Source: an uncultured bacterium
GTDB taxonomy: Bacteria; Verrucomicrobiota; Kiritimatiellia; CAIKKV01; CAITUY01
NCBI GenBank assembly: GCA_903934155.1
Contig: CAIZMS010000144.1
Span: forward strand, 1-33,984
Direction: 5' to 3'
DNA: 33,984 nucleotides
The notes beneath the pieces are model-generated. The model saw nothing but the letters and a program-made list of their open reading frames with translations. It had not been told where the DNA came from and made no database searches. Shown piece after piece: positions 14,539-24,337 of the stretch; position 1 is the first letter of the stretch; every line of letters starts with the position of its first letter. A program made the position numbers and the translations under genes.

Positions 14539-14676
14539 GTTCTCTCTGCCTTACCTAGACCTCCGGGCGCCCCAGGCGTAATAATGGGGCATGACGTATT
14601 CTGATGTCCCAAGCCTGCGGCCGTAGTGCCGAGCAAGGCTGAACTCTCCAGCGCAAGACGGAAAGGACTGTATCGA

Positions 14677-17295
14677 ATGAAGATCATGACATGGATGCTT
14701 GCGGCCGTTTGGTGTTTCACCACAACGGTGGCAGTTGCTGCGCAACTAGACAAACCCTTGATCACCATTGACAAGCAGGCCGTCAAGATTGAGGTGATCC
14801 GCTCAGGCGCAATTCTCGAAATCCGGCCCGTTTCGGACACGATCGTCCGGGTGACCTGTCGCCCCAAGGGTGCGCCGGAACGAAAGCCAAGCCTGATTGT
14901 GAACAATCCTTTGGATCCCTTTACTGGTTGGGACTGTTCCGAGTCGGCTGACGTGCTCGAAATCCGCACCGCCAAGCTGATCGTCGAGTACTCGAAGGGC
15001 GATGACGCCATTCGTTTCCTCCGCAAGGACACGGGTGAACTCATTCTGGGGGAAAAGCCGGGCGACGGGCGGTCCTTCGTCGATACCGCCGTCGAGCAGA
15101 CGTTCCTGTGCGGAGCCGACGAGGTGCTCGGCGGGTTGGGTCAGCAGACGGACGGCGCGATGAATTTCCGCGGGCGATTCGCGCATCTCTGCCAGTACAA
15201 CATTATCAAGGCCATTCCGGTCCTGGTCTCCAGCAGGGGTTACGGTATTTTATGGGACAACTGTTCGCTGACGGAAGTCAACCGCCGGAAGAGTCCGGTG
15301 CCGCTAGAGTTCCATCCCTATACCAAGACATGGGGCGGCACCTTCACGCCGCGGGAGACCGGCCAGCATGTCTTCGTGCTCGAGAAACTGAACCGCAACA
15401 TTCCCATGACCACGGAAAAAGTGAGCGTCCGGGTTGACGGGAAGGAGATTATCGCGCGGGAATGTCCCTGGCATCCCAACTATTACTCGGGAACCGTGGT
15501 GTTGGAAAAGGACAGGCCCTGCAAAATCATGGCGACAGGATCCATCCGCTTGTTTTACCAGCCGCCCTCCCTGACGGAGACGACCTCGATCTGGTCGGAA
15601 GTGGGCGAGGGCATCGACTATTATTTCATGTACGGCCCGCAACTCGACGGCGTGATCGCGGGATACCGGAACCTGACCGGGGCCGCCCCCCTGTTCCCCA
15701 AGTGGGCCTACGGGTTCTGGCAGAGCCGGGAGCGCTATACCACGGGCGAGGAGCTTGTTGCCATCGTGGATGAATATCGCAAGCGCAACCATCCGCTCGA
15801 CGTCATCGTGCAGGATTGGCAGTACTGGCGGGACTATGGCTGGAATGCCCTGAAGGTGCATCCGGACTACGCCCGCGACATGAAGGCCATCGTCGGGCGG
15901 CTGCATGACCGGCATGCGCGCGTGCTGTTTTCTGTCTGGCCCAACTTCGGGTCGGAACCCGCGAACGAGGCCCATGCGGAGTTCAAGGAGAAGGGGTACC
16001 TGCTCGACGATTCGGTGCTGGGCGACTACATCGGCAACTACCAGGCGGCCCTCCAGGGCATGCAGAAGAACTTTTCGGATTTCTTCAAGCCCGGGGTGGG
16101 GGATGCCTTCTGGAAGCGGATGAAGCAGGGGCTTTTCGACGCCGGGATTGACGGCTGGTGGCTGGACGCCAACGAGCCCAATCTCGCCAGTATCCAGGGG
16201 GTGTTCCACCTCTACCAGACCGCCGCAGGCCCCGCCGCCGCGGTTCTCAATGCCTATCCCCTGGTGCAGACCCGGAGCATCTACGAAAACCAGCGCAAGG
16301 AAACCTCGGCGAAACGGGTGTGCCTGCTTTCGCGAAGCGGCTTTGCCGGGCAGCAGCGCTACGCCGCGGCGGTGTGGAGCGGGGACACCTATGGCTCGTG
16401 GGCGGTGCTCAAGTGGAATATTGCCGGCGGCATCAATTACTGCCTCTCGGGTTTGCCGTACTGGGGCACCGACATCGGCGGGTTCTTTGGAGGGGACCCC
16501 GACAGCCCCGCCTTTCGCGAGTTGTACGCCCGCTGGTTTCAATATGGGGCGTTTTGTCCCATTTTTCGAGCCCATGGAACCGGCAGCAAGCGGGAGGTCT
16601 GGCAGTTCGGTCCCGAATCCGAGGCGATCCAGCACAAATATCTGGTCCTTCGCTATCGCCTGATGCCTTACATCTACAGCGTGGCATGGAAAGTCACCCG
16701 GGATCACTCTACGATGCTGCGGGGGCTCGTGCTGGACTTCCCCCGCGATGCCAAGGCCTGTACCGTGGCCGACCAGTTCATGTTCGGGCCGGCGTTGCTG
16801 GTCTGTCCCGTTACGGAACCCGGTGCCCGCGAAAGACCCGTGTACCTGCCGGCGGGCACGGGCTGGTATGATTTCTGGACCGGGGCTTATCACCAGGGCG
16901 GGACGACCCTCACCGCCAAGGCCCCGCTCGACCAAATTCCGCTTTTCGTTAGGGCCGGATCCATCGTGGTGATGGGGCCGGAGATGCAGTATACCTCCGA
17001 AAAGCAGGCGGATCCCCTCGAGGTCAGGGTCTATGCCGGCCAGGATGCCGCCTTCACGGTGTATGAAGATGAGGGCGACAACTACGGGTATGAGCAAGGG
17101 ATATACGCGGAGATTCCGATCCAGTGGCGCCAAGGCGACAAGACGTTGACCCTCGGGGGGCGGACAGGCCGCTTCCCCGGAATGCTGGAGCGGCGCACGA
17201 TCAAGGTGAAATGGATTGGCGTGCCCGGCAAGGATAGCGGGATGTGTGTGGATGTCGCCTATACCGGCGAGGGCGTTTGTGTGAAGGGGGAATAA
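14677..17295 (+). CDS. Glycoside hydrolase family 31-like enzyme (alpha-glucosidase/alpha-xylosidase type), secreted
   Basis: ATG 14677 gives the signal peptide MKIMTWMLAAVWCFTTTVAVAAQ. GH31-type motifs are KWAYGFWQSRERY, PLDVIVQDWQYW, GIDGWWLDANEP (nucleophile region, about 16155-16178), AAAVWSGDTYGSW and FCPIFRAHG. Confidence 0.88.
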   Translation: MKIMTWMLAAVWCFTTTVAVAAQLDKPLITIDKQAVKIEVIRSGAILEIRPVSDTIVRVTCRPKGAPERKPSLIVNNPLDPFTGWDCSESADVLEIRTAKLIVEYSKGDDAIRFLRKDTGELILGEKPGDGRSFVDTAVEQTFLCGADEVLGGLGQQTDGAMNFRGRFAHLCQYNIIKAIPVLVSSRGYGILWDNCSLTEVNRRKSPVPLEFHPYTKTWGGTFTPRETGQHVFVLEKLNRNIPMTTEKVSVRVDGKEIIARECPWHPNYYSGTVVLEKDRPCKIMATGSIRLFYQPPSLTETTSIWSEVGEGIDYYFMYGPQLDGVIAGYRNLTGAAPLFPKWAYGFWQSRERYTTGEELVAIVDEYRKRNHPLDVIVQDWQYWRDYGWNALKVHPDYARDMKAIVGRLHDRHARVLFSVWPNFGSEPANEAHAEFKEKGYLLDDSVLGDYIGNYQAALQGMQKNFSDFFKPGVGDAFWKRMKQGLFDAGIDGWWLDANEPNLASIQGVFHLYQTAAGPAAAVLNAYPLVQTRSIYENQRKETSAKRVCLLSRSGFAGQQRYAAAVWSGDTYGSWAVLKWNIAGGINYCLSGLPYWGTDIGGFFGGDPDSPAFRELYARWFQYGAFCPIFRAHGTGSKREVWQFGPESEAIQHKYLVLRYRLMPYIYSVAWKVTRDHSTMLRGLVLDFPRDAKACTVADQFMFGPALLVCPVTEPGARERPVYLPAGTGWYDFWTGAYHQGGTTLTAKAPLDQIPLFVRAGSIVVMGPEMQYTSEKQADPLEVRVYAGQDAAFTVYEDEGDNYGYEQGIYAEIPIQWRQGDKTLTLGGRTGRFPGMLERRTIKVKWIGVPGKDSGMCVDVAYTGEGVCVKGE

Positions 17296-17327
17296 ATCCA
17301 TGAGTCAGGATGAGGAGGCAGAACTGT

Positions 17328-18620
17328 ATGAAGTTTGAATGTCCGAAATGTAGCCAACGTCTTTCGGTTGCGGCGACCGCCGCAGGGCTCATGGTCCGGT
17401 GTCCGTCATGCGATAACCGGGTCAAGGTGCCGCTGGCGTCAAAGGGGGATCGGCGCGCCTGGAAGGAAACAGACCCGACGAATCCCAATCCGTTCCTCAG
17501 TCTGGGGATCACGCTGGTTGTGCTTCTGCTGTGGTTCCTGCTTCTGTTGCCGTTCGTCCCTCCGGCAGGCACGCCGATTTCCTCATACAGCACGATGCAG
17601 TTCCTGTCATCGTTGTTCTACAAGCATTTCCTGGTCAGTTTCATCAACACGATGTTCTTCGTGTGGGCCATGTCGATCATCTTCCTCAAGCACCTGAAGA
17701 TCCGGCACCAGAAGGCCGCGATGATGCTCGACGTCCTGCCGCCGCAGCTCGGCAAGGAGATCGACGGCACGAACGTGGGGGCCTTTATCGACCATGTCTA
17801 CTCGTTGCCCCACAAGTTGCGCGACAGCCTGATGGTCAACCGGATCCGGAAGGCGTTGGAGCTGTTCGAGATTCGGCAGAACGTGGCCGAGGTGCGGGAG
17901 ATGATGGCGAGCCAATCAGAGATCGATAGCGGTCGCATCAGCGGCAGTTTCACCCTGTTGCGCGCCTTTCTGTGGGGGATCCCGCTGCTGGGATTTATCG
18001 GGACGGTCATCGGCTTGTCGCATGCCATCGGCGGCATGAGCTTCGGCAACGTTGAAGATGTCAGCAAGATCGTGGGATCGATCAACAATGTGACTAGCGG
18101 CCTGGGGACGGCCTTCGACGCCACCCTGCTGGGCCTCGTGCTGGCCCTGATCCTGAACTTTCCGCTCAACGCGCTGGCCAAACAGGAGGATGACAACCTG
18201 CAGACGATTGACGCCTTCTGCAACGAGGTGCTGCTGCCACGCCTCAAGGATACGACGTCGGCGCTGACGATCGATTCGAGCGCCGTGGCCAACGCGCTGG
18301 CGCTTGCCATTGCCGGATCGCAGGAGAAATTCATTGTGCAGCTCAACCAACTCGCCCAGCAGATGGGAGGCTATGCCGCGGAGATGGAGAAGCGCATGGC
18401 CACATTCCAGGAGACTGTGACCGAGGAGATTGTGTCCCGGAACGCCGAAATGCGCGAGCAGAATCAGTTGGCGTTAAATGGTTCGCTGGAGCAGGTGTCC
18501 AGGTACATCGGCGGGTTGGAGGCGGGCATTGGAGGCCTCAACAAGGTGCTCAAGGAGCTGGGCGAGCGGCAGGTGGTGGTCCAGGCACCCCCGCGGCGAC
18601 ACTGGTTCTGGCGTTCCTGA
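17328..18620 (+). CDS. MotA/TolQ/ExbB-family ion-channel (stator A-type) protein with an N-terminal CxxC...CxxC zinc ribbon and a ~150-aa C-terminal coiled-coil tail
   Basis: ATG 17328 follows GAGGAGG (17312-17318). The zinc ribbon is MKFECPKCSQRLSV...VRCPSCDNRVKVP (MJ0042-like). Four TM helices have MotA-like topology. The channel signature is LLRAFLWGIPLLGFIGTVIGL ... GLGTAFDATLLGLVLALILNFPLN. The tail is rich in heptad-like Q/E/A/L sequence (QEKFIVQLNQLAQQMGGYAAEMEKRMATFQETVTEEIV...). Confidence 0.85.
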   Translation: MKFECPKCSQRLSVAATAAGLMVRCPSCDNRVKVPLASKGDRRAWKETDPTNPNPFLSLGITLVVLLLWFLLLLPFVPPAGTPISSYSTMQFLSSLFYKHFLVSFINTMFFVWAMSIIFLKHLKIRHQKAAMMLDVLPPQLGKEIDGTNVGAFIDHVYSLPHKLRDSLMVNRIRKALELFEIRQNVAEVREMMASQSEIDSGRISGSFTLLRAFLWGIPLLGFIGTVIGLSHAIGGMSFGNVEDVSKIVGSINNVTSGLGTAFDATLLGLVLALILNFPLNALAKQEDDNLQTIDAFCNEVLLPRLKDTTSALTIDSSAVANALALAIAGSQEKFIVQLNQLAQQMGGYAAEMEKRMATFQETVTEEIVSRNAEMREQNQLALNGSLEQVSRYIGGLEAGIGGLNKVLKELGERQVVVQAPPRRHWFWRS

Positions 18621-18662
18621 AGGCGGTCAGGTCCGGACGGTTGAACCCGAAACACAGCACCC

Positions 18663-19514
18663 ATGGCCAAAAAACGACAAGGCAAACATGACGAGGTGAT
18701 GCTCATCCCGTTTTTGGACATCCTCTGCTCGCTGATCGGGGTTCTGATTTTGATTGTCGTGGTCATGAGCGTTTCCCAGATGCAGCGGGTCGATGGGCGT
18801 TCCAAGGAAGAGGTGGCCCGGGCGCAGCGGTATCAGACCCTGCTGCAACAGCTGAAGGACGAGGAGAAAGCGGCGCTGGAACGGCAGGCGAAGGTCGCGG
18901 AATTGGAGCGCAAGCGCAACTCCGAGCAACGTCTGCGGATGGAACTGCAGGAGAAGCAGCGGAAACTGGCTGAGATGCGCCAGCAGCTGCAGCGGTCAGC
19001 GGACACCGCCCAGGCGGACAAGCTCAAGACCCTGGAGCTCCGCAAGCGGATCGAGTCCCGCGCCCAGGAGAGTCTGGCGTTGGCCCAGTCGCTTAAATTC
19101 ACGCAGGCCGAAATCCTGGCGCTCCGGAAGTTGATCGACGAGCGGCGGAAACTGCCGGAGATCAAGCCGAAGGTCCAGGTCATGCGGTCCACCGGCAGCG
19201 GCACGGTCGGGAACCAGCGCCTGTTTTTTGTCGAGGTGAACGGGATCGCCATCAAGGTCCACCAGGAGAAGGGGAAGCCCATCAACGTCCCCATCGATAA
19301 CGTGAAAGGGGACAAGGACTTCAACGCGTTCCTTGAAAAGGTCAAGAATACGGGCAACGCCTCCCTGTTGTTCCTGGTCCGGAAGGGGGGCGGCGTCACA
19401 TACCTGCGCGCGGCAGGCTGGGCCGAACAGCAGTATCAACTGAACACCGGAAAAATCCCCATACCTGGCGAGGGGCCTCTCGACCTGAGTCTTTTTGCCG
19501 GAGAGAGGTACTGA
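18663..19514 (+). CDS. ExbD/TolR-like single-pass membrane protein with a ~125-aa coiled-coil spacer (stator B-type, paralog 1)
   Basis: The N-terminus MAKKRQGKHDEVMLIPFLDILCSLIGVLILIVVVMS has a basic head and then a TM helix with Asp19 (GAC 18717-18719), as in ExbD/TolR. Residues ~45-170 (nt ~18795-19172) are highly charged and heptad-like (ALERQAKVAELERKRNSEQRLRMELQEKQRKLAEMRQQLQ...). The C-terminal ~110 aa look like an alpha/beta domain (LLFLVRKGGGVTYLRAAGWAEQQ). No clear SD precedes the start, so the start is less certain. Confidence 0.75.
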   Translation: MAKKRQGKHDEVMLIPFLDILCSLIGVLILIVVVMSVSQMQRVDGRSKEEVARAQRYQTLLQQLKDEEKAALERQAKVAELERKRNSEQRLRMELQEKQRKLAEMRQQLQRSADTAQADKLKTLELRKRIESRAQESLALAQSLKFTQAEILALRKLIDERRKLPEIKPKVQVMRSTGSGTVGNQRLFFVEVNGIAIKVHQEKGKPINVPIDNVKGDKDFNAFLEKVKNTGNASLLFLVRKGGGVTYLRAAGWAEQQYQLNTGKIPIPGEGPLDLSLFAGERY

Positions 19515-19528
19515 GCGGATAACGCCCC

Positions 19529-20602
19529 ATGAGCAAGAAACGGCATGCCGAGGAACAGGAGTTGCCCTTCGTGGCGCTGATGGACACGATGACCAACGTG
19601 GTCGGCGTGCTCGTCATCGTGATGGTCATGATCGGGATCACTCTGGCCCGGGCTGCCAGCAAGGTGCTGTCGTCATTGCCTCCCGCCACCGAGGCCCAGA
19701 TCGTGGAGGTCATGTCGCGGCTCGAACGGCTGCGCGCCGAGCAGGCGCCCCTCCAGGCGAAACTGGCGGCCCCGGCCGACGTCCGGACCGATCCGAAGGC
19801 GATGGAGCGGGTCGACCAGGAACTCGCCGATCTTGAACGGCAGATGAAAAACCGGGGCCTCAAGCCCCAGGACGATGCCGAACTCATCCGCGACCTGGCC
19901 CGGAAGGACGAGGAACTCGTGAAACTCAAAGCGGACGCGTCGAAAATCACGGAGGAGCGGAATAATCTCAAGGTCCAGTTGGATCAGACACCCATACCGC
20001 TTACTCCGCCCGCCAAGGTCGTGCGCATTCCGGCCAGCCGGCCGATCCCCAAGAATGCCAGGATTGAGCAGGTCGTGGTCACGAAGGACGGCGCCTACTG
20101 GGTTGACGAGGAGGCCCTGACCCGTCAGTTCCTAGGGGAGTTCAGCCTGGCCGGGAGCCGCGAGGCGATCTTCAGTCAGGTGAAGCGCGGCAACAAGCGG
20201 GTCACGATTTATGATGCGGTCAAACTCAAGAACTATTTTGAGAAACGAAAGCTCAAAACGCGCGGGTTCGATGTGACCATGGGCTTTGAAGAGTGGTCCC
20301 GCACCTGGCCGGTGTTGACGTTGCGCGCCTCCGGCGCGCCTGTGGCCGACCTGGGGGGGATTCTGTGGCGGATCAAGCATAAGCCGAACGCGGTCGTGAT
20401 GTTCCGCGTCACCGGCGATGGGTACGACCACTATCTGGATGCGCGGGAGGTGTGTGACAAGCTGGGCATTCCCGCCGGGTGGGAGTACGCCTTCGCGCCC
20501 GAGGCCAAGTGTTTGATCAATGAAATCGAGACGAACCGGCCCGTGCCTGCGGCGAAAGACAAGTCCGACGAAATCAAGCCGCCCGCGGCTAAAATCGACT
20601 GA
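19529..20602 (+). CDS. ExbD/TolR-like single-pass membrane protein with a ~100-aa coiled-coil spacer and a larger C-terminal domain (stator B-type, paralog 2)
   Basis: The N-terminus MSKKRHAEEQELPFVALMDTMTNVVGVLVIVMVMIG has the same layout and again Asp19 (GAC 19583-19585). The charged helical segment spans ~residues 48-152 (nt ~19670-19984). The C-terminal ~200 aa include AVVMFRVTGDGYDHYLDAREVCDKLGIPAGWE, reminiscent of the ExbD periplasmic domain. The tail is Lys/Pro-rich. Confidence 0.78.
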   Translation: MSKKRHAEEQELPFVALMDTMTNVVGVLVIVMVMIGITLARAASKVLSSLPPATEAQIVEVMSRLERLRAEQAPLQAKLAAPADVRTDPKAMERVDQELADLERQMKNRGLKPQDDAELIRDLARKDEELVKLKADASKITEERNNLKVQLDQTPIPLTPPAKVVRIPASRPIPKNARIEQVVVTKDGAYWVDEEALTRQFLGEFSLAGSREAIFSQVKRGNKRVTIYDAVKLKNYFEKRKLKTRGFDVTMGFEEWSRTWPVLTLRASGAPVADLGGILWRIKHKPNAVVMFRVTGDGYDHYLDAREVCDKLGIPAGWEYAFAPEAKCLINEIETNRPVPAAKDKSDEIKPPAAKID

Positions 20603-20621
20603 CGAGGAGAGGTTGGTCAAA

Positions 20622-22784
20622 ATGAATCTTATCAGCGTGTTCAAGTGTGCTCTCCTGACCGGACTGCTGGTTCCGGCGGGATGTCAGAACGAAAACGGGA
20701 GGGGTGTCCCAAAGGGGGACGAAGCGGTTTGGCAAGGTAACGCGGGCGGGATGTTTTCGCGACAGGACATCATCGTCAAAACCGAGGCGGGCAAGACCTT
20801 TCATTTCCCCGTCAAGATCGTCGGCAACAGCATTACCAGCGAGCTGGGCCCTTTCGGCCTCTATACCGAGGAACTCGTTGTCAAAGACAACACGACCACC
20901 TTGGGGAAAGTGTCCTTGAAGATTGCTGGCGACGAGGGGTTCATCGTGCAGTGCCCGTTTGCCATGCCTAAACCCCGCGGCAAGCCCTATTTTATGATCC
21001 CGGGCTTCCTGTACGGCTCCAATAACCTGAAAGGGTCCGACGGGAAACAGCCGAAATTCGACTATGGCGGGAAAGTTTCCTATCCCAACAGTTCCCTGTG
21101 GTACATCCGGGCCGACCGCAGTACTCACCCGGGCGTCATCACGGTGGTCAACAACCGGGTGTCGATGGTCGGGATCGGGCATCGCATGATCGGCCATGAG
21201 CAGGAGCCTGCCGATGTGTGGTCGCCCCGCTATGTGTTCAATGGGGTGATGCTCGACAGTTCGGATCCTGCTGAGGATCGGGTCGGGTTTCAGTTGGGGT
21301 ACGAAAATGCGCCCGGCCGCTATTCCTGGACTTGGAACGATTCCCGGATTCCCCGCGAAAACGCCTATCGGTTCGGCTGGATCAGGAACGCCAAGGGCAA
21401 GACGCTGACCACGCAGACCTTCTATTTCACGGATCGCGCCTCGTCGGTGAAGGCGTATGGAAAGGCGCTCGAAGCCTATTATCACGCCTTCCACCAGCCC
21501 CCGTTGAAACGCTCCCAACGGCTTGAAGCGCTCGAGAAGATAGGAACCTTTTCAGCCACGGAAGGCTACAACCAGGATCACAAGTTCTTCTTCCTGTACG
21601 ACGGGCCGGGCGGCAACATGGTGGGGGACATCGCCTGGACCGGCGGCATGCAGGTCGCCTATCCGTTGCTGGCCGCCGGGATGAGGGTCAACAACCCCTT
21701 GTTCATCGCCAGGGCCACGGACTTTATTGATAACTTGAGCACCCAGGTGATGAATCCGAAGGCGGGCCTCCTGAACGAGGAATTCCGGGCCGAAAAGGGG
21801 GGCGCGGGGGCCTCGACGGGTTCAGGCTCCGTACGGGGGAAATGGAACGTCACGGGATGGTGGGGAATCGGTGTGAACGCAAACTGTTTTGACATGGGCG
21901 ATCACCCGCTGCACAGCGCTTACCTCAACGGCCAGGCAGCGTATTATCTTCTCAAAGCCTATGAGCGTAACGGATGTAAGAAGGAACGCTGGCTGAAAAC
22001 GGCGCAAACCGTCCTGGACACGGTTCTCAAGAGCCAGAATACGGCAGGGGCTTACGGCGTGTTCTTCGATCCCGAAACCGGCAAAGCGGTGGACTACGAT
22101 GGGTTCCAGAGCTGCTGGTTCCTCCCCGGAATGGCGCTACTGGCCAGGCTCACCCAGGCTCCGCAATACCGCGAAAGCGCCACGAAGGCCGCCCGCTACT
22201 ACGATTCGCTCTATGCCACGGGCGAACTGTTCAATACGCCGATGGATACCCATAAGGCGGTTGACCAGGAAGGCAACCTTTCGTTCATTGTGGCCACGGC
22301 GGAACTTCACAAGCTGACCCATGACCGGGTATACCTGGATATGGCCCGCGATGCGCTCGACTGGGAGTTCTCCTGGAAATTCTGTTACAACAAGGCCTAT
22401 TCGCACGACCCGCTGCGCCGCTTGAACTGGTCGACCTGTGGCGGTTCGATCACCAGTACCCACAATTGCACCATTCATCAGATGGGAACCCTGGTGGCGG
22501 GCGATATTCATTACCTCTACACGCAAGTGAAGGACCCCTACATCGCCTCCCGCCTCAAGGATACCTGCGTGTGGGGGCTGGGAACCTACAACCGTGTTGA
22601 CAACGATTTCGGCTTTGGCAAGGTCGGCCATGCCACTGAGCAATTCACCTATACCGATGGCCTGGTGCTCGCCAAGCGGTCATTCTGGGACGGCGGTGTC
22701 TGGGAAGTCAACTTGACGTGGGCCTCCGCCTGTGTCTTGAATTGCGTCGCCGATGATATCCCTGATGAGTTTTTCGGGGAGTAA
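20622..22784 (+). CDS. Lipoprotein of unknown family (720 aa; N-terminal beta-rich region and a helical C-terminal half, possibly an alpha/alpha-toroid-type carbohydrate-active enzyme)
   Basis: ATG 20622 follows GAGGAGAGG (20604-20612). The lipobox-like signal is MNLISVFKCALLTGLLVPAG|C. The C-terminal half has helix-repeat character with aromatic/acidic motifs (HSAYLNGQAAYYLLKAYE, FLPGMALLARL, YLDMARDALDWEFSW). I recognise no diagnostic family motif. Confidence 0.7.
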   Translation: MNLISVFKCALLTGLLVPAGCQNENGRGVPKGDEAVWQGNAGGMFSRQDIIVKTEAGKTFHFPVKIVGNSITSELGPFGLYTEELVVKDNTTTLGKVSLKIAGDEGFIVQCPFAMPKPRGKPYFMIPGFLYGSNNLKGSDGKQPKFDYGGKVSYPNSSLWYIRADRSTHPGVITVVNNRVSMVGIGHRMIGHEQEPADVWSPRYVFNGVMLDSSDPAEDRVGFQLGYENAPGRYSWTWNDSRIPRENAYRFGWIRNAKGKTLTTQTFYFTDRASSVKAYGKALEAYYHAFHQPPLKRSQRLEALEKIGTFSATEGYNQDHKFFFLYDGPGGNMVGDIAWTGGMQVAYPLLAAGMRVNNPLFIARATDFIDNLSTQVMNPKAGLLNEEFRAEKGGAGASTGSGSVRGKWNVTGWWGIGVNANCFDMGDHPLHSAYLNGQAAYYLLKAYERNGCKKERWLKTAQTVLDTVLKSQNTAGAYGVFFDPETGKAVDYDGFQSCWFLPGMALLARLTQAPQYRESATKAARYYDSLYATGELFNTPMDTHKAVDQEGNLSFIVATAELHKLTHDRVYLDMARDALDWEFSWKFCYNKAYSHDPLRRLNWSTCGGSITSTHNCTIHQMGTLVAGDIHYLYTQVKDPYIASRLKDTCVWGLGTYNRVDNDFGFGKVGHATEQFTYTDGLVLAKRSFWDGGVWEVNLTWASACVLNCVADDIPDEFFGE

Positions 22785-22795
22785 GGGATTATTTG

Positions 22796-24337
22796 ATGTA
22801 TATGAAACAATGCCTTGTTGATATTGTCATGAGGACGGCCCTGATCGCCGCCTTGTCCGCTGGTAGGGTGGATGGGGCTGTGAACGGTGGGGCCTGCGCG
22901 TCGGTGCAGTCCACCACTGGCGCGCTAACCAATGGGCCCGTCCCCGGTTGGGAAGTGCCGTTGCGCCGCGATCTGGAGGCGATGGCGACACGGCTGGCCG
23001 GCACCTTAAAGCCGTGGACGGTCCCGGACTGCACGGTGCGGGTGCAGGATCATGGCGCCATCGGCGACGGCGTGACCGTCAACACCAAAGCCCTCCAAAA
23101 GGCGATTGATGCCTGTGCGGCCCAGGGCGGCGGGGTGGTCCTTTTTTCGAAAGGGGACTTCGTGACCGGCACCCTGGACCTCAGATCCGGAGTGATGATC
23201 GAGGTGGCCGGGGGGGCCAGGATCTTGGGCAGTACCCGGCTGGCGGATTATCCGGAGCGCATCGCCCGGCGGCGGACGGTGATGGATACCAATATGGGGA
23301 TGAATCAATCGCTGTTCTTCGCCGAGGGGTGCGAACGCATCGGGTTCCGCGGCAGGGGCGTGATTGACGGGCGCGGGACGAAACAGAATTTTCCGGGCGA
23401 ACAGACCGTTGTCTCGACGCCCGGCCGTCCCTTCCTGATCCGCGTGCTGGATAGCCGGAACATCCTGCTCGACGGCATCACGCTCAAGGATTCCCCCTGC
23501 TGGATGCAAAATTACCTCAATTGTGAAGACCTTATCTTCCAGGGCATTACGGTGGAGAACCAGGCCAATTGGAACAATGACGGCCTCGACATCGACGGGT
23601 GCCGGAACGTGATCGTTCGTGACTGTTTCCTGAATTCGGAGGATGATGCCCTGTGCTTCAAGGGCGCGAGCTTGAAACCGACCGAGAACGTTCTGGTGGA
23701 GAACTGCCGGATCTACAGTACCTGCAACGCGATCAAGTATGGGACCGATTCGCAGGGGGATTTTCGCAATGTCCTCATTCGGAACGTCGAGGCGGGCGGA
23801 CCGGCACCAACGATGCGCGCCCTGACCCCGCGGCTGGCCATATCCGGCATCGCGCTGGAGATCGTGGATGGAGGGACGCTGGAGAATGTCATGCTGTCCG
23901 GCATCCGGCTTGTGCGGTGCGAGTCCCCGGTTTTCCTGCGGCTGGGGGATCGCGGTCGCGTGATGCCCGGGATGCCGCGCCAGGCGCCCGGCGTCTTGCG
24001 CCGCGTGATCCTCGATCACCTTACCGGTGACGCCAACGGCAAACGGGGGTCCATTATCTCGGGGATCCCCGCCGCCAGTATCTCGGATGTCGTCATGCGG
24101 AATTTTCATCTGGTCGTCGCGGGGGGGGTGGGGGCCTGGCCGCCGGGCAAGCTGATTCCGGAAAAAATCGATGCCTATCCCGACGGCTGGATGTTTGGCC
24201 CGCTGGTTCCCTCCCATGGCTTCTGGATCCGGCACGCGCGGGATGTGACTTTCAGCGGAGGCCGGGTCGTGACGGAGAAGCCGGACGCCCGTCCGGTCCT
24301 TGCCACCGGCGTGAATGTCACCAATATCTCTTGGTGA
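22796..24337 (+). CDS. Glycoside hydrolase family 28-like enzyme (polygalacturonase/rhamnogalacturonase-type right-handed beta-helix)
   Basis: Possible starts are ATG 22796, 22802 and 22829; the signal-like segment is MRTALIAALSAGRVDGAV. The N-terminal motif VQDHGAIGDGVTVNTKALQKAIDACAAQGGGVVLFSKGDFVTG and the catalytic-region motifs NNDGLDIDGCRNVIVRDCFLNSEDDALCFKG and RIYSTCNAIKYGTDS fit GH28. Confidence 0.85.
   Translation: MYMKQCLVDIVMRTALIAALSAGRVDGAVNGGACASVQSTTGALTNGPVPGWEVPLRRDLEAMATRLAGTLKPWTVPDCTVRVQDHGAIGDGVTVNTKALQKAIDACAAQGGGVVLFSKGDFVTGTLDLRSGVMIEVAGGARILGSTRLADYPERIARRRTVMDTNMGMNQSLFFAEGCERIGFRGRGVIDGRGTKQNFPGEQTVVSTPGRPFLIRVLDSRNILLDGITLKDSPCWMQNYLNCEDLIFQGITVENQANWNNDGLDIDGCRNVIVRDCFLNSEDDALCFKGASLKPTENVLVENCRIYSTCNAIKYGTDSQGDFRNVLIRNVEAGGPAPTMRALTPRLAISGIALEIVDGGTLENVMLSGIRLVRCESPVFLRLGDRGRVMPGMPRQAPGVLRRVILDHLTGDANGKRGSIISGIPAASISDVVMRNFHLVVAGGVGAWPPGKLIPEKIDAYPDGWMFGPLVPSHGFWIRHARDVTFSGGRVVTEKPDARPVLATGVNVTNISW

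Follow-up and report, generated by a model that had tools for sequence, protein, structure and literature searches.

A zinc ribbon and a helical tail on a channel-forming subunit of the ExbB/TolQ-like kind in Verrucomicrobia

The subject of this analysis is a stretch of 33,984 nucleotides (nt) from an uncultured bacterium of the Verrucomicrobiota, class Kiritimatiellia (GenBank assembly GCA_903934155.1, contig CAIZMS010000144.1, positions 1 to 33,984 of the forward strand), which is called the window below, and within it a gene for a membrane protein of the MotA/ExbB family, here the A subunit. An earlier note, made from the letters of the DNA, had drawn attention to a zinc ribbon at one end of this protein and a long tail at the other. 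That observation is confirmed, and the gene product forms the channel of a hitherto uncharacterised motor in the membrane of Verrucomicrobia, one driven by ions. Two partner genes, B1 and B2, follow directly.

The A subunit and its two appendages

The features of the three genes are as follows, with residue numbers referring to the A subunit unless stated otherwise.

17312..17318 (+): Shine-Dalgarno sequence GAGGAGG, read straight from the sequence, 9 nt ahead of the ATG at 17328
17328..18620 (+): A-subunit gene, 430 amino acids (aa) plus stop, encoding a zinc ribbon, an ExbB/TolQ-like core with four transmembrane (TM) helices, and a tail
17328..17426 (+): N-terminal four-cysteine zinc ribbon, residues 1-33 (C5, C8, C25, C28), from cysteine conservation, AlphaFold2 strands and PDB profile matches
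17451..17489 (+): juxtamembrane motif RxxWKExDPTNPN, residues 42-54, mean pairwise identity 0.77
17490..17555 (+): TM1, residues 55-76, Kyte-Doolittle peak 2.83 and AlphaFold2 helix 55-76; an extra helix relative to ExbB/TolQ
17616..17693 (+): TM2, residues ~97-122, from AlphaFold2 and hydropathy
17694..17951 (+): cytoplasmic helical domain, residues 123-208, 13 K/R, identity 0.74, aligning with the ExbB/TolQ cytoplasmic domain in Foldseek
17952..18026 (+): TM3, residues 209-233, with invariant P219, G222-T226 and G229 (TolQ-like GxxGTVxG)
18102..18179 (+): TM4, residues 259-284, with invariant T256, G258-G260, D264 and T266
18180..18245 (+): cytoplasmic helix after TM4, residues 285-306, with the invariant IDAFCNEVLLPRL motif, identity 0.82, continuous with TM4 in the AlphaFold2 model
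18246..18281 (+): variable hinge, residues 307-318, predicted local distance difference test score (pLDDT) below 50 at 311-318, identity 0.43, with insertions and deletions
18282..18560 (+): tail helix, residues 319-411 (a single AlphaFold2 helix, 317-411), with the conserved tip GGLExGIxGLNxVLxxLG
18561..18617 (+): C-terminal peptide, residues 412-430, made up of KQVVVQ, a basic run and WF (RRHWFWRS here)
18663..19514 (+): B1, ExbD/TolR-like, with a TM helix containing Asp19, a ~115-residue coiled coil and a small alpha/beta domain
19529..20602 (+): B2, a second ExbD/TolR-like partner and a distant paralogue of B1

The open reading frame (ORF) of the A subunit spans 17310-18620 (+), and its true start is the ATG at 17328, because a Shine-Dalgarno sequence stands 9 nt ahead of this codon and the orthologues start with MKFxCPxC. 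The earlier note had placed the gene at 17328-18620, which is correct, and the start does not lie downstream of the ribbon. A word-indexed search returned more than 1000 homologues, most of them at 95-100% query coverage, and an exhaustive search of 1.84 billion cluster representatives gave 269 clusters at E <= 1e-30, with lengths of up to 1094 aa. Conservation was read from a 65-sequence alignment, which was also fed to AlphaFold2 to obtain a monomer model with a mean pLDDT of 78. In this model the ribbon is followed by a low-confidence linker, TM1 (55-76), a helix containing TM2 (89-133), cytoplasmic helices (150-207), TM3 (209-235) and a long helix (245-305) that comprises TM4 and the invariant IDAFCNEVLLPRL segment. 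The C-terminal part consists of a hinge (306-316, pLDDT <50), the unbroken tail helix (317-411) and a non-helical end (412-430).

The ribbon reads CPKC, 16 residues and CPSC at nt 17340-17411; the CxxC-N17-CxxC ribbon that had been described there is present, translated and conserved, with a spacer of 16 residues and not 17. C25, P26 and C28 are invariant in 65/65 aligned orthologues, and C5 and C8 were seen in all 48 of those that include these columns. When related loci were read directly from DNA, 65 encoded one ribbon and one encoded two; the remaining nine, which had no scored ribbon, were contig-end truncations or cases where the regular-expression anchors were missed, and the ribbon was seen in all six that were inspected. 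Pfam Zn_ribbon_4 (PF13717) matches residues 1-30 of the window protein below its threshold (23.5 against 30.3 bits) and passes it in orthologues P0002 (39.1 bits) and P0005 (36.0 bits); some orthologues have two tandem ribbons, and these exceed the threshold. AlphaFold2 predicts four short strands (residues 2-4, 11-13, 22-24 and 31-33; pLDDT ~80), and the order of a ribbon at the extreme N-terminus, two CxxC knuckles, a linker and then TM1 is an MJ0042-type layout. A 31-sequence profile of the ribbon, searched against PDB, matched LysW (E 4e-4), the N-terminal MILTCPEC... ribbon of 2nb9 (E 0.004), which we take to be Caulobacter ZitP, and 7zok (E 0.035), the 'Adventurous gliding motility protein X' (GltJ/AgmX).

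The ribbon is easily lost in annotation. Only the second CxxC is kept in 49 of the 122 database entries inspected (~40%), because gene callers began at an internal Met. The error is systematic: in many of the entries P0037-P0114 the start was mis-called at the Met that is position 10 of the true protein. In practice, this hides the ribbon from domain annotation.

Membership of the MotA/ExbB family is clear from Pfam MotA_ExbB (PF01618), which matches residues 173-292 at 46.6 bits against a cut-off of 22.9 (50.4 bits in a genome scan). A profile search of PDB with the whole A alignment produced apolipoprotein and coiled-coil noise, with TolQ and PomA only at E ~0.5-0.8, and the core was therefore placed by fold search. 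Foldseek ranked ExbB 5sv0 first (E 3e-4) and gave TolQ 8vlw the highest template modelling score (TM-score 0.70), with PomA/MotA and ZorA (8vvn, E 0.04) ranking below both. The earlier description of a MotA-like stator subunit thus holds at the level of the family, but the fold is nearest to ExbB/TolQ, not to MotA or ZorA. The cut-offs of the equivalogs for flagellar MotA (NF005997, 15.6 against 340) and TolQ (TIGR02796, 20.5 against 221 bits) were both missed. Residues P219, G222, G225, T226, G229, T256, G258, G260 and T266 are invariant in the 65 sequences, the channel-lining T226 and T266 among them, as are W45, E47, D49, P50, N52 and P53 of the juxtamembrane motif. Cys298 (window 18219-18221), in the IDAFCNE motif just past TM4, is likewise invariant in 65/65 aligned orthologues, and five copies of it would ring the base of a pentamer.

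Hydropathy gives four TM segments, with K+R counts of 10 in the N-terminus, 0 in the TM1-TM2 loop, 13 in the TM2-TM3 loop and 1 in the TM3-TM4 loop. By the positive-inside rule, both termini are therefore expected in the cytoplasm (N-in, C-in). As the known structures of ExbB and TolQ show three TM helices, with the N-terminus in the periplasm, TM1 would be an added helix that turns the N-terminus inward. The same rule together with the ExbB-like fold predicts that ribbon and tail both face the cytoplasm. This agrees with the placement assumed at the outset, and neither appendage is put in the periplasm.

The tail had been described as about 150 residues of heptad-like sequence after TM4. The appendage is real, but the first ~20 of those residues form an ordinary ExbB-type C-terminal helix, and heptad-like is inexact: the family-averaged hydrophobicity of helix 317-411 has its periodicity peak at 3.65 residues (power 100), against 7.9 at 3.5, and the tail is better called hendecad-like. 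Identity is 0.62 at the tip, 0.57 at the C-terminal end (KQVVIQ, basic run, GWF) and 0.48 in the shaft. The tail helix (residues 319-411) has 8 K/R against 11 D/E and is rich in Q, S, T and A. Counted after the DAFCNE motif in 191 distinct family members, the tail has 125-135 residues in 157, 163-280 in about 30, and 529 and 549 in two. The statement that the tail is much shorter than that of ZorA is therefore right for the window copy, but not for these longest orthologues. The 549- and 529-residue tails come from Chthoniobacteraceae/Verrucomicrobiota metagenome-assembled genomes (MAGs; loci L064 606-3293 and L094 3639-6185) and contain 73-residue repeats. Some of the repeat copies in these two are nearly identical, which suggests recent expansion. 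Further autocorrelation peaks were seen in long tails at 22, 29, 51, 58, 87, 102 and 109. Since 73 residues (20 turns at 3.65) and these other spacings all correspond to whole turns at ~3.64 residues per turn, the hydrophobic seam stays in phase along the tail. The long-tailed orthologues match PADLOC ZorA1 at 3e-17 across core and tail; with Pfam Apolipoprotein, whose cut-off is 90 bits, they score no higher than 52.8.

The C-terminal peptide takes the forms KKKGWFSR, KKKGWFGR, RRGLFGRR, RRGLFGRRK, RGLFGLFRRR, RKGFFSKLFKG and RRFWQRFGR across the family and distant ribbon-bearing relatives. Among usable cluster representatives and fetched relatives, a cationic-aromatic peptide was found in 70/80 proteins with a ribbon and in 7/19 without one (Fisher p = 1.6e-5, uncorrected for phylogeny). 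We take these peptides to resemble membrane-targeting sequences of the MinD/FtsA type, a likeness that serves as a lead.

Partner genes, distribution and relatives

B1 and B2 share one layout, in which a basic N-terminus leads into a single, Asp-bearing TM helix, and a coiled coil and then a small domain at the C-terminus follow. The Asp is present in 75 of the 78 B1 sequences scored, the other three having Ser, and in 76/76 of the B2 orthologues read. The Ser variants of B1 fall in one clade (L090, L093, L095). This pattern, with the Asp of B2 always kept, suggests that the two axle subunits may be unequal in proton handling. The C-terminal domain of B1 was modelled (pLDDT 81) as beta-beta-beta-alpha-beta-alpha-beta, and its best Foldseek TM-scores were to TolR 5by4 (0.59) and ExbD 8p9r (0.67), none at E <= 0.001. 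PDB profile searches returned coiled-coil proteins only for full-length B1 and nothing useful for the C-terminal domain alone, and we use the term ExbD/TolR-like for B1 tentatively. Pfam gave no match to an OmpA-type domain in B1 or B2.

The order A-B1-B2 is retained in ~75 of 80 loci. No conserved neighbour beyond these three genes was found among the 80, including ZorC/D, ZorE and ZorF/G-like effectors, which extends the earlier remark that no effectors follow the gene. No TolA or TonB gene is adjacent in the window or the related loci.

The triad was found in Luteolibacter, Akkermansiaceae, Prosthecobacter, Verrucomicrobium sp. BvORR106 and BvORR034, Chthoniobacter and Brevifollis, and also in Kiritimatiellia MAGs. 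In one family of the same phylum the gene occurs in 79/81 high-quality genomes and 13/13 genera; 78 of the 79 carriers have a single copy, and the lone genome with two matches is a 980-contig assembly. The triad is thus a single-copy core module of one large Verrucomicrobiota family, a pattern that argues against a defence system. Distribution in the window's own genus is patchy (2/17 genomes). No match to the gene was seen in the phage collection. We also considered whether the triad replaces Tol-Pal and set this aside: in about two thirds of 31 carrier genomes a separate TolQ-like gene neighbours one for a TolB-like propeller, although neither reaches its curated cut-off, and the triad is therefore an extra motor rather than a Tol substitute.

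The nearest relatives outside the family are A subunits of ~290 aa, with a core ~30% identical and neither ribbon nor tail. They resemble the window family in their A-B-B' order with two unlike TolR-like genes, their four-TM A subunit and a WxxD juxtamembrane motif. They lie in larger operons (L102 3207-12950, L103 2167-12170, L105 661-8321), with two TolR-like genes downstream (and, in L102, a protein of the vWA (von Willebrand factor A) type) and ~1000-aa proteins upstream; a protein with a GAP1 domain, one with RDD/GYF domains or a PrsW protease is also encoded in some of the loci. The vWA protein is tethered to the membrane. The window family has none of these neighbours, and has the ribbon and the tail instead. 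The operons of the ~290-aa relatives appear to be the 'vWA force transducer' system of the Planctomycetes-Verrucomicrobia-Chlamydiae group (PMC12204202) with extra genes of a conflict-system kind. A second group of relatives, known from the window's class and also from plasmids of cyanobacteria, has a tail ending in RPRIITLREE-like sequence and no ribbon; the cyanobacterial cores are ~30% identical.

What the motor may couple to

For every 5:2 ion-driven motor known so far a single output has been identified: the rotor in flagella, TonB, TolA or GldM, or, in Zorya, the effectors. The present family is most like ExbB-ExbD and TolQ-TolR, which provide the best structural match for the core and share the TolQ-like GxxGTVxG and Thr motifs of the last two TM helices, and whose partners likewise have a TM Asp and, as far as the weak matches allow, a small ExbD/TolR-like periplasmic domain. 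Unlike ExbB and TolQ, however, the window A subunit has an extra N-terminal TM helix (N-in), a zinc ribbon and a ~125-residue extension past the C-terminal helix, and in contrast to Ton and Tol the family has two B subunits that differ from one another, both with a coiled coil of ~115 residues. Our best reading is that this is a motor specific to Verrucomicrobiota and relatives, a variant of the 5:2 motor with two cytoplasmic coupling appendages, and that it probably connects to something inside the cell.

Both appendages have a possible precedent, by analogy, in motors with a cytoplasmic connection: the ZorA tail and the GltJ ribbon. ZorA is also an A subunit of the MotA/ExbB family that runs into a long cytoplasmic helical tail with 11/3-type core spacing, and the longest orthologues of the window gene reach ZorA-like tail lengths. 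The core of the published ZorA tail (L250/254/258/261) has 4-4-3 spacing and forms a right-handed pentameric bundle; the tail is required for communication with the effectors, and its deletion abolishes assembly of the ZorAB membrane motor (PMC11946911). The 3.65 peak seen here parallels the 4-4-3 spacing. ZorA profiles are moreover the best matches of the window protein in the defence library and in NCBIfam, with alignments reaching into the tail, although the scores are low (NF033915, 27 against 100; NF033917, 21.8 against 500; PADLOC ZorA2, 8.6e-10 and partial only). In contrast to ZorA (PDB 8vvn), the window tail measures ~95 residues and ~14 nm against ~70 nm and is preceded by a hinge, and the A subunit carries a fourth TM helix as well as the zinc ribbon. 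The peptidoglycan-binding domain of ZorB and the effector genes are both absent, and the gene belongs, as a single copy, to the core genome and not to defence islands. With the ZorA cut-offs missed as well, the view that the system is not Zorya is upheld.

GltJ is a membrane protein of the TolQR-like AglRQS gliding motor of Myxococcus; its ribbon (residues 1-42; C5, C8, C28, C31) binds the adjacent linker and is freed upon MglA-GTP binding, as part of a switch for binding cytoplasmic partners, and it has been likened to ZitP, which binds PopZ (PMC11135422). The shared layout of GltJ (7zok), ZitP (2nb9) and the A subunit is a four-cysteine ribbon of ~35-40 residues from Met1, a linker and a TM helix, in an envelope machine. 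However, the ribbon here is fused to the motor A subunit itself, where the others have an accessory protein of TonB-like kind; a GYF domain is lacking, and the sequence similarity to either ribbon is weak (E 0.004-0.035). GldL-GldM and PorL-PorM offer a functional analogy only, being of the 5:2 type, with a pentamer subunit that has a cytoplasmic C-terminal extension and a dimer subunit that crosses the periplasm. GldL has two TM helices, and GldM pairs two identical chains of globular domains, whereas B1 and B2 would pair as unlike coiled coils.

From this anatomy we infer a 5:2 stoichiometry, a tail bundle, rotation and a partner, and the model that we favour, with about an even chance of being right, is a proton motor of composition A5-B1-B2. 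A pentamer of A would surround one B1 and one B2 and be driven by protons. The extra N-terminal helix would reverse the N-terminus, and the ribbons would hang in the cytoplasm on flexible linkers of ~20 residues at the five corners of the ring, where they could serve as docks for a cytoplasmic protein by which the motor is positioned, held or gated. Each ~95-residue helix, with its 11/3 periodicity, would pack with four neighbours, most likely into a right-handed five-helix bundle ~14 nm long, a short central counterpart of the ZorA tail. The bundle would present its ligand-binding tip peptide to a partner or a surface, and would either turn with the A ring or hold it still. The variation of A-tail length from 125 to 549 residues, with B1 and B2 of ordinary size even in the two longest-tailed loci (292/402 and 296/399 aa), shows a tail independent of the periplasmic stalks and counts in favour of this model. 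So do the family and fold of the core, the invariant Thr residues and partner Asp of the ion path, the steady A-B1-B2 order, the predicted topology, the conserved ribbon starting at Met1, the tail periodicity and the in-phase growth of long tails, the co-occurrence of ribbon and C-terminal peptide, and the single-copy distribution.

Several points weigh against it. No cytoplasmic partner gene is linked to the module, and the AlphaFold2 prediction covers the monomer. A flexible, variable hinge ahead of the tail is poorly suited to torque and permits other tail orientations, and both the 3.65 periodicity and the sub-threshold Apolipoprotein matches would fit an amphipathic helix lying on a surface equally well. 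If the C-terminal peptide is of the MinD type, as it looks to be, a rigid axial tail of 14 nm could not return it to the membrane. The similarity of the ribbon to 2nb9 and GltJ, at the E values given above, may reflect a generic four-cysteine pattern. The appendages could equally serve assembly or anchoring instead of signalling.

The favoured model would gain in reach, though we hold this extension to be tentative, if the family were a housekeeping relative of the Zorya motor, a core 5:2 rotary motor in which tail and ribbons couple rotation to a cytoplasmic structure or clamp the A ring. Candidates for that structure are a scaffold, the nucleoid and an internal membrane; if the A ring were clamped instead, the heterodimeric coiled-coil shaft would spin in the periplasm. 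In either case the ion-driven motors would gain a new functional class, which might be the cellular ancestor-type of the tailed defence motors.

The hinge and the periodicity also allow an arrangement that we regard as unlikely, in which the tails do not bundle but fold over at the hinge and rest against the cytoplasmic side of the membrane as amphipathic helices of 11-residue repeats, with the C-terminal peptides pinning their ends. The resulting star, in the style of apolipoproteins and alpha-synuclein, would hold the A ring by drag as the B1/B2 coiled-coil shaft turned, as has been proposed for GldM in GldLM. A period of 3.65 yields a straight hydrophobic stripe, PDB profile matches to apolipoprotein A-IV accompany those to Pfam Apolipoprotein in long-tailed orthologues, and the C-terminal peptides RKGFFSKLFKG, RGLFGLFRRR and KKKGWFSR are of MinD/FtsA-type appearance. 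The tail is also free to vary in length, as if no fixed distance were spanned, and the long periplasmic coiled coils of B1 and B2 suit the part of a shaft. However, a slightly acidic helix rich in Q, S, T and A is a poor fit for anionic bacterial membranes, the Apolipoprotein matches fall far under their cut-off, and a membrane-targeting role of the peptides is putative. Moreover, the C-terminal helices of ExbB and TolQ end by the central axis, ~3 nm under the membrane (5SV0), which favours an axial bundle.

That the ribbon and tail of the A subunit do no more than aid nucleation, folding, insertion or stability seems doubtful. The output would then be solely periplasmic, through B1 and B2 in the manner of Ton and Tol. 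The loss of ZorAB assembly on deletion of the ZorA tail (PMC11946911) lends this some weight, as do the lack of a cytoplasmic partner encoded nearby, the elaborate periplasmic parts of B1 and B2, and the ~290-aa relatives, which manage without either appendage. However, the tip and the C-terminal peptide are more conserved than the shaft (0.62 and 0.57 against 0.48), and relatives at 30-40% identity still have the peptide, which co-occurs with the ribbon; this speaks for a specific ligand and not for bulk stability. The number of ribbons (one or two) and the length of the tail also vary beyond what assembly would demand.

A Zorya-like defence sensor, in which the tailed motor senses phage damage to the envelope and its tail signals to effectors encoded elsewhere, is very improbable: the best PADLOC and NCBIfam matches are ZorA models, the tail periodicity is that of ZorA, the gene is patchy in the window's own genus and ribbon-less cyanobacterial relatives lie beside a type III-B Cmr system and inside a defence island, but the gene is single-copy core in 79/81 genomes and all 13 genera of one family, has no ZorC/D/E/F/G-like or other conserved neighbour, is flanked mostly by housekeeping or sugar-use genes, misses the ZorA cut-offs widely, is accompanied by a B1 without an OmpA-type wall-binding domain and has no match in phage records.

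We believe that the family merits attention for its combination of an ExbB/TolQ-like core, two cytoplasmic appendages and two long-stalked periplasmic partners in a module that is core in environmentally abundant bacteria. The ligands of the ribbon and the tail tip would reveal whether a motor outside defence uses a ZorA-style tail, whether motors can be positioned or clutched from inside, and which envelope process is powered in Verrucomicrobia.

Neighbouring genes and further loci

In the window the motor triad lies inside a co-directional, tightly spaced gene run (14626-24337), which includes a GH31 (glycoside hydrolase family 31) gene ending 32 nt before the A gene, a lipoprotein gene with faint GH76/GH88 matches and an ORF at 22793-24337. 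Promoter and terminator scans of the window gave chance-level results only. This arrangement is not kept in relatives. A link to sugar degradation was considered and dropped as a local coincidence, because the glycoside-hydrolase neighbours are not conserved in other loci. Clustering had suggested a conserved neighbour at 35 loci, a gene for a pyrroloquinoline quinone (PQQ) beta-propeller, but this arose artificially from antisense shadow ORFs that had been chained together; direct BLAST placed it at only four distinct loci (five matches, one a duplicate).

Two cyanobacterial plasmids carry ribbon-less tailed motors, each with two small TolR-like genes. On pANACY.03 of Anabaena cylindrica (L106 5866-8445) they stand directly after type III-B Cmr and near viperin, and on p1 of Microcystis aeruginosa NIES-2481 (L107 6866-9466) they stand in a defence island, with a ~1090-aa helicase-related gene and SLATT/nucleotidyltransferase, DUF559, NUDIX and nuclease genes as neighbours. 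Within the motor clade, these relatives may form a branch that is linked to defence.

Nearly every genome in the window's order also encodes a soluble protein of ~150 aa in which a very similar ribbon (CPxC...AGLxIxCPDCxNxIQVP) is followed by a coiled coil (L009 1450-1902, L010 1453-1890, L011 1243-1692; also G000:C18:4868-4975). This protein could be a partner or a paralogue from the ribbon family.

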